The notes beneath the pieces were generated by a model. That model saw only the letters and a program-made list of their open reading frames with translations. It searched no databases and had not been told where the DNA came from. Positions 11,594 to 14,427 of a stretch of 64,000 nucleotides of DNA are shown here, piece after piece; position 1 is the stretch's first letter, and every line of letters starts with the position of its first letter. Source of the stretch: Escherichia phage NHEP36; sequence record PQ511151.1, one strand, 5' to 3'. The position numbers and the translations under genes are program-made.

Positions 11594-12067
11594 ATGATTA
11601 TCAATGAAAACTCTTGGCACTTTAAAATTTATGCCGCATTCAATAGTACATGGAATCGTCCGAAAACGTTGTGTGTTTATTTTTGGAAAACGTTAATCCC
11701 GGTATTGGCTGTTTCAATTATTGGATTTGCGATTTTAGCAGCAGCCACAATTATTGGCCAGGAATTTTTAACTAAATTCTTTGTTTTTAACAGTCTATGG
11801 ACATTAGTTCCAGCCTCAATCGGCGTAGGCATTTTAATGGTAGCAGTCATGGCTTTTATTGCTGCCGGGGCGGTAATTGGTCCGTCTTGGTTGTTAGACA
11901 AATATAACGACAGAAAATATTATAAAGAAATTGAGCTCATTGCACAAAACCAAGAACGAATTAAAAATGGACTAGAGCCTATTGAACGTAAGAAATCATT
12001 AATAGGTGAATACCTTAAAGCTCGTAAAGAAAAAGTCTGTCCTACTCTTGAATATAAGGCTAAATGA
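11594..12067 (+). CDS. hypothetical membrane protein
   Basis: ORF track 157 aa; several hydrophobic helices. Confidence 0.55.
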   Translation: MIINENSWHFKIYAAFNSTWNRPKTLCVYFWKTLIPVLAVSIIGFAILAAATIIGQEFLTKFFVFNSLWTLVPASIGVGILMVAVMAFIAAGAVIGPSWLLDKYNDRKYYKEIELIAQNQERIKNGLEPIERKKSLIGEYLKARKEKVCPTLEYKAK

Positions 12068-13053
12068 TGAAAACAATTATGAAAGGCTACTTTGGTAGTC
12101 ACCTTTATGGAACGTCTACTCCTGAATCTGACGTCGATTTTAAAGAAATTTATGTCCCTCATGCTCGTGATATCTTGACCGGTAACGTTAAAGAACATAT
12201 GAGCAAGAACACGAATAACACATCTTCTAAGAACACAAAAGACGACGTGGACCACGAGTTGTATAGTCTCAAATATTTCTTTAAACTAGCTGCGGATGGT
12301 GAAACTGTCGCATTAGATATGCTTCACACTCCACCAAGTTTAGTAGTTAAATCTGATTTGCCTGGCGTGTGGAAGTATATTCAAGACAACAGGTCTCGTT
12401 TCTATACTACTAACATGAAATCTTATTTAGGGTATGTCCGTAAGCAAGCTTCTAAATACGGTGTCAAGGGTTCTCGACTGGCTGTTCTTCGTCAAGCCCT
12501 TAAACGTTCTAATGAATGGGGACAATACTTTGATAATGGTGCAGTAATTCGTTTATCACATATGAAGAATGTTCTGCCTATAGGTGAATTTGCTTCGTGG
12601 GTTGAAACCGAAAATGAGAAAACAGGTAAGCAAACATTCTATAATCTGTTAGACCGTAAATTCCAAGACACATTAACCAATAAAGAGTTCAATGCCATCC
12701 TTGTTAAACTAGAAGAGAACTATGGTGAACGTGCTCGTAAGGCAGAAGCTAACGAAGGTATTGACTGGAAAGCATTGAGTCATGCATGTCGTGGTGGACT
12801 TCAATTATTGGAAATTTACAAAACCGGCGACCTGGTTTACCCACTTCAGGATGCTCCATTTATTCTCGATGTTAAGCTTGGTAAACATACGTTTAAAACT
12901 GTACAAGAATTCCTAGAAGATATCGTTGACCAAGTTGAACATGCGTCAGAACAAGCTGCCAAGAACGGTATGCAACAAAAAGTAGATATGAGTTTCTGGG
13001 ATGACTTCCTTGAACAGGTCTATCTCGAAAACCACAATTCATACTATAAATGA
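12064..13053 (+). CDS. nucleotidyltransferase-fold protein
   Basis: Minimal NTase motif GSHLYGTSTPESDVDF (GS...DxD); followed by hairpin terminator. Confidence 0.6.
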   Translation: MMKTIMKGYFGSHLYGTSTPESDVDFKEIYVPHARDILTGNVKEHMSKNTNNTSSKNTKDDVDHELYSLKYFFKLAADGETVALDMLHTPPSLVVKSDLPGVWKYIQDNRSRFYTTNMKSYLGYVRKQASKYGVKGSRLAVLRQALKRSNEWGQYFDNGAVIRLSHMKNVLPIGEFASWVETENEKTGKQTFYNLLDRKFQDTLTNKEFNAILVKLEENYGERARKAEANEGIDWKALSHACRGGLQLLEIYKTGDLVYPLQDAPFILDVKLGKHTFKTVQEFLEDIVDQVEHASEQAAKNGMQQKVDMSFWDDFLEQVYLENHNSYYK

Positions 13054-13056
13054 TAA

Positions 13057-13073
13057 GGGCCTTCGGGCCCTTT
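13057..13073 (+). terminator. hairpin terminator (UUCG tetraloop)
   Basis: gggcc-ttcg-ggccc then ttta. Confidence 0.5.
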
Positions 13074-13100
13074 AGGGGGTCAAAATATTTTTAAAAAGTA

Positions 13101-13130
13101 GTGTACATGCTTTTAGGATATTGTTATTAT
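13101..13130 (+). promoter_or_regulatory. T4-type early promoter
   Basis: -35 GTGTAC, -10 TATTAT, leader agacctatcaaaacaagaggagaa. Confidence 0.5.
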
Positions 13131-13158
13131 AGACCTATCAAAACAAGAGGAGAACAAA

Positions 13159-13377
13159 ATGAAAACCAAAATGTTAGAAATGATTCGTGAAGCTGGTGAT
13201 AAAGGTCTTATGGTTAACACTCGTGATGCAGACCAACGTCAAGCATTCGGTGAACTGAAATCTAAAGGTCTTGTTAAAGCATCCTTGGGAATCGGTAATG
13301 CATTACGAGTTACTTTGACTCCTGCAGGTAAAGCAGTGTTCTTTCAACCTCTTACCAAAAAATCTCGTCGCAAATAA
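13159..13377 (+). CDS. hypothetical small protein
   Basis: ORF track 72 aa; promoter-leader cassette and GAGGAG RBS upstream. Confidence 0.55.
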   Translation: MKTKMLEMIREAGDKGLMVNTRDADQRQAFGELKSKGLVKASLGIGNALRVTLTPAGKAVFFQPLTKKSRRK

Positions 13378-13379
13378 TT

Positions 13380-13409
13380 GTTTACTTTTGCTTTAAACAT
13401 GTTATTATA
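13380..13409 (+). promoter_or_regulatory. T4-type early promoter
   Basis: -35 GTTTAC, -10 TATTAT. Confidence 0.55.
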
Positions 13410-13446
13410 GACCTATCGAAACGAAATGAGTAAATTGGAGAATAAA

Positions 13447-14427
13447 ATGTTCAACGTTCAAATCAAAAAAGGTATCTATCGTAATAACGAAATCTCTGGT
13501 TCTTATGTTGCCACAAAGACATGGTTCCCGGCAAAGCTTAATCCTGAATGTTCCCACTTAGGTGACGGTAAAATTTTCGTTATGATCGATGGTTCTGAAC
13601 GTGGAGTATGGGTCTTCAAATCAGACATCACAATGGAAGGAGCTGAGACATCACCAGTTGCAGTTGTTGAAAGCACTGAAGATATGAAAACTCGTATCAA
13701 CAAGCGCTTTAAAGTAATGAACATGATGACGAATGGCATTATCGATGGCAAAATTCGTTCACTCATTATTTCAGGTGCAGCAGGTATTGGTAAGACGTAT
13801 TCTCTGGATAAAGCACTTAATAATGCTAATGATAATGGTTTCATCAAATACAAAAGCATTAATGGTAAAATCTCTGGTATTGGCCTTTACGAACAACTTT
13901 GGCTCAACCGTGATGCAGACAGCGTTCTCTTAATCGACGACGTTGACGTATTCTCGGATATGGACATCTTGAACCTTCTTAAAGCAGCATTAGATACCGG
14001 AGATAAACGCAAAGTTTGTTGGAGCACTGCGTCATCTTATCTCGATGATAAGGGTATTGATAAAGAATTTGAGTTTGAAGGTACTATCGTTTTCATTACA
14101 AACGTTGATATCGATAAAGAGTTAGAACGCGGTTCGAAACTTGCCCCACACCTTCAAGCTTTAGTATCTCGTTCAGTGTATCTCGACCTTGGAGTACACT
14201 CTAATGAAGAGATTATGGTTCGAGTTGAAGATGTAATATTATCTACTGACATGATGCAGAAACGTGGTCTGACGGATGCAGAAACGTATAAAGCATTGTC
14301 CTGGATGAAGGCTAACGTATATCGTCTTCGCAATGTATCATTACGTACGGCTCTTTATGTAGCAGATTTTATTTCAACTGATAAAGATGGTTGGGAGGAA
14401 ATCTCCGAAGTAACTTTACTGAAATAA
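13447..14427 (+). CDS. P-loop ATPase (AAA-like)
   Basis: Walker A GAAGIGKT, Walker B LLIDDVD; start at internal Met 8 with GGAGA RBS. Confidence 0.6.
   Translation: MFNVQIKKGIYRNNEISGSYVATKTWFPAKLNPECSHLGDGKIFVMIDGSERGVWVFKSDITMEGAETSPVAVVESTEDMKTRINKRFKVMNMMTNGIIDGKIRSLIISGAAGIGKTYSLDKALNNANDNGFIKYKSINGKISGIGLYEQLWLNRDADSVLLIDDVDVFSDMDILNLLKAALDTGDKRKVCWSTASSYLDDKGIDKEFEFEGTIVFITNVDIDKELERGSKLAPHLQALVSRSVYLDLGVHSNEEIMVRVEDVILSTDMMQKRGLTDAETYKALSWMKANVYRLRNVSLRTALYVADFISTDKDGWEEISEVTLLK

Follow-up and report, generated by a model that had tools for sequence, protein, structure and literature searches.

Relatives of the two genes in described systems

Bacterial RlaP transfers one or two NMPs onto the 3'-OH of RNA and prefers mimics of cleaved tRNA (bioRxiv 10.64898/2025.12.29.696909). 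According to the same study, the species that bacterial RlaP labelled were of rRNA and tRNA size and it showed little NTP specificity, PfRlaP and PaRlaP preferred Mn2+ and left protein and DNA unmodified, and the 3'-OH end left by the reaction is exactly that required by Rnl1; its PF10127 network has T4 NrdC.11 in cluster 5 (bioRxiv 10.64898/2025.12.29.696909). RloC excises the wobble nucleotide (PMC2610378), and RlaP has been predicted to put back bases removed by RloC ahead of ligation (PMC7824862).

T4 NrdC.11 itself is an uncharacterised 38.9 kDa protein from the nrdC-mobD region. The T4 block nrdC.11-mobD.3 can be deleted with laboratory viability kept (PMC9825161), which fits an accessory role and says nothing beyond that. 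For nrdC.10, a match to AAA was noted already in 2006 (PMC1524935). Both genes are already known: their names and domain annotations go back to the genome papers of RB69 and T4, and the literature lists T4 NrdC.11 under RlaP.

Gene order and sequence features of the locus in phage NHEP36

The DNA analyzed here is a stretch of 64,000 nt (the window) from Escherichia phage NHEP36 (PQ511151.1), an RB69-like (Mosigvirus) T4-type phage. Homologues of rI/tk and of nrdC lie on either side of the region with the gene pair, so that its placement in the rI-nrdC region by an earlier note on this DNA holds. The region opens with a gene on the plus strand for a predicted membrane protein of 157 aa (11594..12067), a homologue of RB69ORF104c (phrog_944), which occupies the place of a mobD homing endonuclease in T4. 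Its stop overlaps the start of nrdC.11 (ATGATG), which encodes a 329-aa protein on the same strand (12064..13053, +).

Immediately 3' of the nrdC.11 stop is a G+C-rich stem-loop, AAGGGCC-TTCG-GGCCCTT (13055..13072, no strand assigned). It is the counterpart of a T4 terminator at the same place that consists of a hairpin plus a T-run; the T-run is weak in NHEP36. An early-promoter-like site (TGTACA, 17 nt, TATTAT; 13102..13130, +) follows and precedes a 72-aa ORF (13159..13377, +), the small gene that had been reported between the two larger ones. This ORF is 100% identical to RB69ORF102c (phrog_6001, unknown function), has no T4 counterpart and is part of neither enzyme. A second early-promoter-like site (TTTACT, 16 nt, TATTAT; 13381..13408, +) is found 5' of nrdC.10 and falls in a 31-nt direct repeat that brackets the 72-aa cassette.

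The nrdC.10 gene (13447..14427, +) encodes a 326-aa protein. The longest ORF at this place runs from 13426 to 14427 (333 aa), but translation almost certainly starts at the ATG at 13447, because it has a GGAG 8 nt upstream and agrees with the T4 start. The genes stand in exactly the same order as in RB69, in which nrdC.11 and nrdC.10 have been annotated under those names since 2003 and nrdC.11 shares its position and neighbours. Searches of the whole window for Rfam families and tRNA genes gave none.

Both proteins are direct orthologues of T4 proteins. NrdC.11 of NHEP36 shares 78% identity with that of T4 over its full length, and the T4 protein is longer (336 aa versus 329 aa), with the divergence mostly in residues 150-215. 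NrdC.10 shares 77% identity with its T4 counterpart and shows no difference of substance from it or from the other AAA+ ATPases of PHROG 1250. PHROG matches were strong for nrdC.11 (E 5.7e-126) and nrdC.10 (PHROG 1250, E 2.4e-161), and homologues were found in 1565 and 1311 phage records, respectively, with copies of nrdC.11 at least 95% identical in 146. Judged by this sequence conservation, both are real, conserved genes. The earlier note had left open that they might equally be T4 nrdC.x-type genes; this alternative proved right, and the comparison with T4 nrdC.10 and nrdC.11 that it called for gave the identities above together with synteny with RB69. It had also held that clear orthology to conserved T4 ORFs of known, unrelated function would speak against its reading: the orthology is clear, the unrelated function is not.

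nrdC.11 as a predicted member of the RlaP family

The Pfam family RlaP (PF10127) matched nrdC.11 with 49 bits (gathering cut-off 23; E 8.5e-13) and is precomputed on all of its close homologues. The match covers profile positions 23-148 of 249 and is confined to the N-terminal ~150 residues; the C-terminal half is divergent. When nrdC.11 was aligned with canonical RlaP using hhalign, only a short N-terminal alignment of low probability was obtained, and the match to the Pfam HMM carries more weight.

The 329-aa Pol-beta-type nucleotidyltransferase described earlier was confirmed in the ORF at 12064-13053 (+), with GSHLYGTSTPESDVDF at residues 11-26. Its signature (hG[GS]x9-13Dh[DE]h plus a third carboxylate) is made up of G11-S12, 10 residues and D23-V-D25, with D61 and D63 on the next-but-one strand. 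G11, S12, D23, D25, D61 and D63 were invariant among 41 sequences with 34-53% identity, and D63 aligned with the conserved Asp of LDV in canonical RlaP. The AF2 model (pLDDT 92) shows a nucleotidyltransferase domain followed by long helices that form a C-terminal helical domain.

These features identify nrdC.11 as a divergent RlaP-family enzyme with a predicted Pol-beta fold. It shares with bacterial RlaP, for example PfRlaP of Pseudomonas fluorescens from rtcB-rlaP-rtcA operons, the GS, the DxD and the third Asp and probably also the succession of nucleotidyltransferase and C-terminal helical domains, the latter of which forms a cleft in that family. Unlike bacterial RlaP, which has ~260 aa compared with 329 aa, it carries an extra beta-hairpin region (177-201) and a subfamily-specific invariant KNTxDDxD segment.

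Other nucleotidyltransferase families fitted less well. The nearest solved folds to the model were KNTase/ANT(4'), LinB, AadA, HalB and MNT, all weak (TM 0.25-0.32), with two-domain KNTase-like matches in the PDB copy searched, in which the PfRlaP structure was not found. A CD-NTase or cGAS-like signalling enzyme gained no support: neither type appeared in the Foldseek listing of the 50 best matches, and the suggested comparison with CD-NTases led to ANT/KNTase-type enzymes instead. Identity with MntA of the MNT-HEPN systems was rejected: the match reached 12.9 bits against an NCBIfam cut-off of 60, an MNT has only a third of the protein's size, and there is no neighbouring HEPN gene. An AbiEii-type toxin, which had likewise been proposed for comparison, was dismissed, as neither Pfam (E <= 1) nor PADLOC gave a match to AbiEii. 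NCBIfam gave nothing significant, and sequence searches of the PDB with single proteins and profiles nothing meaningful, for either nrdC.11 or nrdC.10.

nrdC.11 and nrdC.10 occur independently of each other

An NTase next to an ATPase suggested to the earlier note a nucleotide-signalling or anti-defence module. In such a two-gene system (second messenger, anti-CBASS or other anti-defence), the nucleotidyltransferase would produce or alter a signal, with the ATPase as effector or partner. Both genes look like early genes, and wherever both are present nrdC.10 lies 3' of nrdC.11 on the same strand (34/34 loci, from T4-like phages of enterobacteria and Acinetobacter), as would be expected of a pair. 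Against this, the genes are set apart by the hairpin and by one promoter-like site or two, and the spacer, into which different genes have been inserted, ranges in length from 7 to 2272 nt.

The distribution of the two genes is also at odds with a joint system. Within 10 kb of nrdC.11, nrdC.10 was found at 34 of 79 loci and was missing at the other 45, and a relative of nrdC.11 was present in the DNA around nrdC.10 (up to 10 kb on each side) at only 9 of 80 loci, leaving 71 without. Co-location is seen only in close T4-like lineages. One Acinetobacter phage has a split nrdC.11 (two ORFs) and an intact nrdC.10, and nrdC.10 occurs without the transferase in unrelated phages (a Rhodobacter siphophage and KVP40-like phages) and in integrated elements (prophages) of Vibrio. 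No nrdC.10-like gene was seen near the cellular relatives of nrdC.11 in 80 loci.

Known defence systems gave no support to a module either: PADLOC defence models returned nothing for nrdC.11 and one chance-level match to SspF for nrdC.10 (E 0.023), no CBASS-type effector gene was found in the neighbourhood of nrdC.11, and the fold matches are those described above. The distribution largely refutes the two-gene system, which we regard as very improbable. An operon or functional module was rejected as well, since neither co-transcription nor co-occurrence across lineages was indicated. The two genes stand side by side only because their order was inherited, and nothing points to joint action; they form an ordinary pair, because they are catalogued genes and mere neighbours, with no two-part system. 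Cooperation restricted to Tevenvirinae-type phages, in which nrdC.10 may remodel or deliver damaged tRNA or RNP to the RlaP transferase as an ATP-driven step of RNA repair, has the fixed order and strand as its only hint and seems to us highly unlikely.

A proposed role of nrdC.11 in tRNA repair

We consider it probable that nrdC.11 and nrdC.10 are two unrelated early genes, of which nrdC.11 is predicted to encode a transferase for the repair of tRNA ends and nrdC.10 a separate AAA+ protein. What nrdC.11 acts on and does in NHEP36, and any role of nrdC.10, we infer.

The proposed pathway is that of T4 tRNA repair, in which Pnkp (PseT) and Rnl1 act against PrrC. Phage NHEP11, which is near-identical to NHEP36, encodes both Pnkp and Rnl1, at ~80 kb from nrdC.11. 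We hypothesize that an RloC-type anticodon nuclease of the host would cut and trim the anticodon loop of a tRNA, whereupon the phage's own Pnkp would first generate a 3'-OH on the 5' tRNA half. nrdC.11 would most likely then extend the broken RNA at its 3'-OH by one or two untemplated nucleotides, the likeliest substrate being the 5' half of an anticodon-cleaved, trimmed tRNA, and RNA ligase 1 would reseal the tRNA. The classic counter-defence of T4 would thereby be extended to lesions in which a base has been lost. Unlike this step, T4 repair of PrrC lesions needs no nucleotide addition; nrdC.11 would be relevant only where the nuclease excises a base, as RloC does. If the proposed role is true, phages could reverse the 'unrepairable' base-excising tRNA lesions of RloC-type nucleases, and a gap in the classic T4 story of tRNA cleavage and repair would be closed.

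Gene neighbourhoods in cellular genomes are consistent with RNA repair. RtcB, Hen1, Ro60/TROVE, Pnkp or Rnl1 was encoded within 4 kb of the nrdC.11-like gene at 15 of 80 bacterial and archaeal loci, and such a neighbour was absent at 65. By a rough estimate, rather than a computed one, this clustering is far above chance placement. At one of the loci an nrdC.11-like gene, Pnkp and Rnl1 stand in a row, and at 19/80 the nrdC.11-like gene is a distinct paralogue adjoining a canonical RlaP.

The phage loci differ. Bacterial RlaP owes its family name to neighbouring genes for RNA ligases or RNA repair, whereas phage nrdC.11 has no adjacent ligase, and neither a ligase nor a kinase was among its recurrent phage neighbours. 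At the 45 viral loci without nrdC.10, no RNA-repair genes were found nearby; the neighbours were a thymidine-kinase-like protein (recognized by eye), a large NadV-like protein, a NatV-like protein and small unknown proteins. A literature search found no reported genetic link of nrdC.11 with pseT or rnlA.

This lack of adjacent RNA-repair genes in phages would also suit a target other than damaged anticodon loops. nrdC.11 might repair the 3' CCA of tRNA, tail host or phage RNA and so affect its stability, AMPylate proteins as MNT-like enzymes do, or nucleotidylate small molecules like aminoglycoside transferases. The broad labelling by bacterial RlaP (rRNA- and tRNA-sized species, low NTP specificity) agrees with such a target, as do the nearest solved folds, and the C-terminal half, which lies outside the RlaP model, could set a different substrate. 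However, those fold matches are weak, MntA scores far below its cut-off and has no HEPN partner here, PfRlaP and PaRlaP leave protein and DNA unmodified, and the cellular relatives of the subfamily cluster with RtcB, Hen1, Ro60, Pnkp and Rnl1. We judge another target to be unlikely and retain tRNA-end repair as the preferred reading.

Among T4-type phages, nrdC.11 is as widespread as the core gene gp62, that is, about as universal as a core replication gene. Counts of nrdC.11 and Rnl1 per genus were near-identical (638/638 in Escherichia, 83/83 in Shigella and 69/69 in Acinetobacter). Co-variation of the two as a sign of functional linkage was nevertheless discarded, as the gp62 control (611, 81 and 69, respectively) reproduced the counts almost exactly; with nearly the same counts for a core gene, the match is not independent evidence. 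It shows only that nrdC.11 and Rnl1 are near-universal in T4-type phages.

nrdC.10 as a predicted AAA+ ATPase

The 326-aa Walker A/B ATPase that had been noticed downstream of the transferase was recovered at 13447-14427, with Walker A GAAGIGKT at residue 110 and Walker B LLIDDVD at residue 161. Sensor 1 (N219), an SRS arginine box (R242), sensor 2 (R295/R300) and a helical lid were also recognized. These AAA+ motifs were all invariant among 30 sequences and make up a complete AAA+ set on an alpha-beta core with a lid, preceded by an N-terminal beta domain (residues 1-64) that is lineage-specific. From its motifs, nrdC.10 is assigned as a complete orphan AAA+ ATPase, none of whose close relatives is characterised. 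It would be separately transcribed and presumably acts as an oligomer that uses ATP for remodelling, and it exemplifies a widespread, horizontally mobile family of phage AAA+ proteins without an assigned function.

The gene contexts of nrdC.10 elsewhere among phages give a weak pointer to DNA replication or recombination, where it could serve as a loader or remodeller together with UvsW, UvsX, UvsY or the replisome. A UvsW-like helicase adjoins the homologue at 44 of 45 informative loci, and genes resembling UvsY, UvsX and gp32 are nearby, but these loci belong to one large environmental lineage; the anchors collapse to a single lineage on clustering, and the UvsW synteny accordingly counts as one observation. 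In the Rhodobacter siphophage, 3.8 kb with 11 small genes separate the homologue from a primase/polymerase gene, and a DNA ligase gene of the opposite strand is 4.6 kb away; the homologue of KVP40-like phages lies between nrdC and the topoisomerase gp52. However, the early regions of all these phages are dominated by DNA-metabolism genes, and the Vibrio integrated elements show AntA, Phage_Gp111, a weak match to Antirestrict and mostly unannotated genes, with no replication genes among them. The SRS box resembles the SRC motif of clamp loaders, and there was a weak PHROG match to a clamp loader (E 2.9e-4); the phage, on the other hand, already has the complete gp44/62 clamp loader. A replication or recombination factor is thus a possible but rather doubtful reading of nrdC.10.

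Membership of nrdC.10 in the clamp-loader (gp44/RFC) subfamily was rejected, as neither specific similarity nor a vacant role was found and gp44/62 is present. Core and lid, Walker A/B, sensor 1, arginine box and sensor 2 are shared by nrdC.10 with AAA+ ATPases of the clamp-loader, initiator, MoxR and MCM types. As in the pre-sensor-1 hairpin clades, an insert separates helix alpha3 from strand beta4 in nrdC.10.

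Identity and genomic setting of the two genes

The phage is a T4-type, RB69-like phage (Mosigvirus), and the strand read here is opposite to that of the standard T4 map. Over positions 11000-16500 it shares 99.8% identity with Escherichia phage NHEP11. The order mobD.1, ORF104c, nrdC.11, ORF102c, nrdC.10, nrdC.9, nrdC.8 is exactly that of the RB69 annotation. An earlier note, made from the sequence alone, had placed a nucleotidyltransferase gene and an ATPase gene, separated by a small gene, in the rI-nrdC region. This observation was confirmed: the genes are flanked by rI and tk homologues upstream and by thioredoxin (nrdC) downstream, and all the ORFs are real, with their coordinates, lengths, nucleotidyltransferase motif and Walker A/B motifs borne out. 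The first gene, nrdC.11 (12064-13053, 329 aa), encodes GSHLYGTSTPESDVDF at residues 11-26, and the 72-aa protein (RB69ORF102c) is encoded at 13159-13377. The best start of nrdC.10 (13447-14427, 326 aa) is 13447, preceded by GGAG 8 nt upstream and used in T4 also; its protein contains Walker A (GAAGIGKT) and Walker B (LLIDDVD) motifs.

Over their full length, the two products are 78% and 77% identical to T4 NrdC.11 and NrdC.10, and they were assigned to PHROG 388 (nucleotidyltransferase, E 5.7e-126) and PHROG 1250 (labelled unknown, E 2.4e-161), respectively. Both domain calls, COG3541 nucleotidyltransferase for nrdC.11 and AAA ATPase for nrdC.10, have been in print since 2006 (PMC1524935). The cautious alternative of the earlier note, T4 nrdC.x-type genes, is therefore correct, and these are known, already named genes. 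No tRNA and no Rfam family was found in the whole window.

Where T4 has the mobD homing endonuclease, a predicted membrane protein of 157 aa (phrog_944; RB69ORF104c) is encoded here at 11594-12067, with a stop codon that overlaps the start of nrdC.11. Outside the window, NHEP11 has a gene annotated as phospho-2-dehydro-3-deoxyheptonate aldolase (DAHP synthase; L166 5296-6288) between a dCMP deaminase gene and the gene for Pnkp (kinase/phosphatase, T4 PseT), a site at which T4 has small cd.x ORFs only.

nrdC.11 belongs to the RlaP nucleotidyltransferases

The nrdC.11 protein matched the Pfam family RlaP (PF10127) at 49 bits (curated threshold 23, E 8.5e-13), the match being confined to the N-terminal ~150 residues. 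Invariant positions in an alignment of 41 representatives (34-53% identity) include G11, S12, D23, D25, N57, D61, D63, Y132, R223, K236 and R243. In a profile comparison with a canonical RlaP, the GS motifs of the two coincide, D23/D25 fall on the DxD motif and D63 falls on the Asp of the LDV strand; by sequence, the catalytic triad is therefore intact. In the AlphaFold model (pLDDT 92), the nucleotidyltransferase domain leads into a long helical domain, into which a beta-hairpin region is inserted. The closest solved folds were kanamycin nucleotidyltransferase/ANT(4'), an Exiguobacterium nucleotidyltransferase-like protein, Hailong HalB, LinB, AadA and MNT, all at low TM (0.25-0.32). Comparison with CD-NTase, MNT and AbiEii had been suggested in the earlier note; there was no significant match to MntA, to AbiEii or to defence-system models, and neither CD-NTase nor cGAS was among the best 50 fold matches listed.

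According to a December 2025 preprint, two Pseudomonas RlaP enzymes attach one or two NMPs at an RNA 3'-OH, prefer Mn2+ and a cleaved-tRNA mimic, do not use DNA or protein as substrates, and can make a tRNA lacking one anticodon-loop nucleotide chargeable again; T4 NrdC.11 falls in cluster 5 of its RlaP family network, labelled unknown function (bioRxiv 10.64898/2025.12.29.696909). A comparative study predicted that phage RlaP puts back, before ligation, bases taken by nucleases such as RloC (PMC7824862), a PrrC relative that excises the wobble nucleotide (PMC2610378).

RNA-repair genes near nrdC.11 relatives

Recurring neighbours at phage nrdC.11 loci, identified by eye, were a thymidine-kinase-like protein, large NadV-like and NatV-like proteins and small unknown proteins, with no RNA-repair gene among them; in NHEP11, Pnkp and Rnl1 (RNA ligase 1) lie ~80 kb from nrdC.11. 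Neighbours within 4 kb were also counted at 80 bacterial and archaeal loci with nrdC.11 relatives of 34-52% identity, all neighbour identities being Pfam-confirmed. A canonical RlaP paralogue was found at 19 loci, RtcB at 9, Hen1 at 5, an HD_4 (HD-domain) protein at 4, Ro60/TROVE at 3, a Pnkp-type phosphatase at 2 and a T4-type RNA ligase 1 at 1. At least one RNA-repair gene was present at 15 of the 80, by rough estimate far more often than chance genome placement would give; this links RNA repair to the nrdC.11 subfamily itself.

Per-genus record counts of nrdC.11 and Rnl1 were almost equal. The core clamp-loader gene gp62, used as a control, gave nearly the same counts, so they do not demonstrate co-variation with the ligase; all that can be read from the agreement is that among T4-type phages nrdC.11 is roughly as universal as a core gene.

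Family biochemistry and the neighbourhood test suggest that nrdC.11 most likely adds nucleotides to trimmed tRNA before sealing. The enzyme would act without a template at the healed 3'-OH of a nuclease-trimmed tRNA, and the phage ligase would then seal the extended product. In the laboratory, T4 can do without the block that runs from nrdC.11 to mobD.3 (PMC9825161), as expected for an accessory counter-defence gene.

Several of these loci had further features. In bacteria, the nrdC.11-like transferase often directly adjoins a canonical RlaP of full length (PF10127, E 9e-71) in the same orientation (19 of the 80 loci; e.g. L222 6001-6954 and 6976-7767); the two different paralogues of such a tandem pair may act jointly or on different ends. 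On a Nitrosospira contig (L193 1528-9158), Ro60/TROVE, RtcB, an nrdC.11-like transferase and Hen1 are consecutive, in this order, on one strand as a compact RNA-repair island, and a canonical RlaP paralogue is also present within 4 kb. At 1383 nt, the match to the transferase is unusually long, and a further domain may therefore be fused to it. A 4-kb contig from a Bathyarchaeota bin (L174 80-3800), probably viral and not archaeal, was the sole locus found with the full proposed repair trio contiguous: an nrdC.11-like gene, T4-type Pnkp and T4-type RNA ligase 1, consecutive on one strand.

nrdC.11 and nrdC.10 as separate genes

The earlier note had also entertained a transferase-ATPase module. 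All seven of the closest T4-like phages (at least 61% identity to the window's nrdC.10 protein) carry nrdC.11, and at 34 of 79 nrdC.11-anchored loci nrdC.10 is present too, in every case downstream in the same orientation, after a spacer of 7 to 2272 nt. The genes are nevertheless independent in distribution, and a single unit is not supported. The other 45 nrdC.11-anchored loci, some close T4-likes among them, lack nrdC.10, and within the sequence retrieved, at most 10 kb to either side, only 9 of 80 nrdC.10-anchored viral loci have an nrdC.11 relative; two of these 9 are more distant loci, with the genes 2.3 kb and 8.4 kb apart. None of the 80 cellular nrdC.11-like loci has an nrdC.10 relative. 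Phage records of nrdC.10 are patchy (in Klebsiella phages, 149 versus ~280-295 for nrdC.11, Rnl1 or gp62), and the gene is found with no transferase in a Rhodobacter siphophage, KVP40-like phages (beside topoisomerase gp52), jumbo phages and Vibrio chromosomal elements. In Acinetobacter phage fHyAci03 (L005 4380-5411), nrdC.11 is annotated as two ORFs (Ac3_131, Ac3_130), suggesting a frameshift or decay, and the downstream nrdC.10 is intact. Directly after nrdC.11 lies a G+C-rich UUCG-loop hairpin, at a site where T4 has a canonical hairpin and T-run. A separate promoter-like site of the T4 early type precedes each of the next two genes, the 72-aa gene and nrdC.10. That nrdC.11 and nrdC.10 are neighbours reflects a gene order inherited within one phage lineage.

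Between the two genes (13102-13446), a 31-nt direct repeat (13122-13152 and 13400-13430, 87% identical) brackets the 72-aa gene and covers the promoter -10 region and 5' leader. T4 differs in having only 114 nt here, with a terminator and one promoter and no gene. RB69ORF102c was found in only 137 phage records and lies ~14 kb from nrdC.10 in JS10-like phages. Gene and promoter together have the look of a small cassette that recombination between promoter regions has moved.

The AAA+ ATPase nrdC.10

All AAA+ motifs were invariant among 30 nrdC.10 sequences of 52-82% identity: Walker A, Walker B (DD), sensor 1 N219, the SRS arginine box (R242) and the sensor 2 arginines. By these motifs, nrdC.10 is a catalytically competent AAA+ ATPase. 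The model (pLDDT 87.5) starts with an N-terminal beta domain of five strands (residues 1-64), continues through a disordered linker to an AAA+ core with an insert ahead of sensor 1, and has a helical lid. It could be assigned to no particular AAA+ clade, and it is not the clamp loader, for which the phage has separate genes.

On distant environmental contigs, the gene next to the nrdC.10 homologue encodes a UvsW-like SF2 helicase, and UvsY-, UvsX- and gp32-like genes are close by. The 63 nrdC.10 anchors linked at >=50% identity form one large lineage, with UvsW synteny in 44 of 45 informative loci, and thus count as a single observation, a weak pointer to a function in DNA replication or recombination. 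The homologue is immediately upstream of the helicase gene (L021-L085; e.g. L030 1607-4473), and one UvsX-like gene in this set has an apparent intein-sized insert. Two Vibrio genomes (L167 8001-8975, L169 8001-8969) have homologues of 54-56% identity in elements bounded by a large serine recombinase, and the L167 element also has genes matching AntA, Phage_Gp111 and, weakly, an anti-restriction family; temperate elements are therefore a further vehicle of this AAA+ family.
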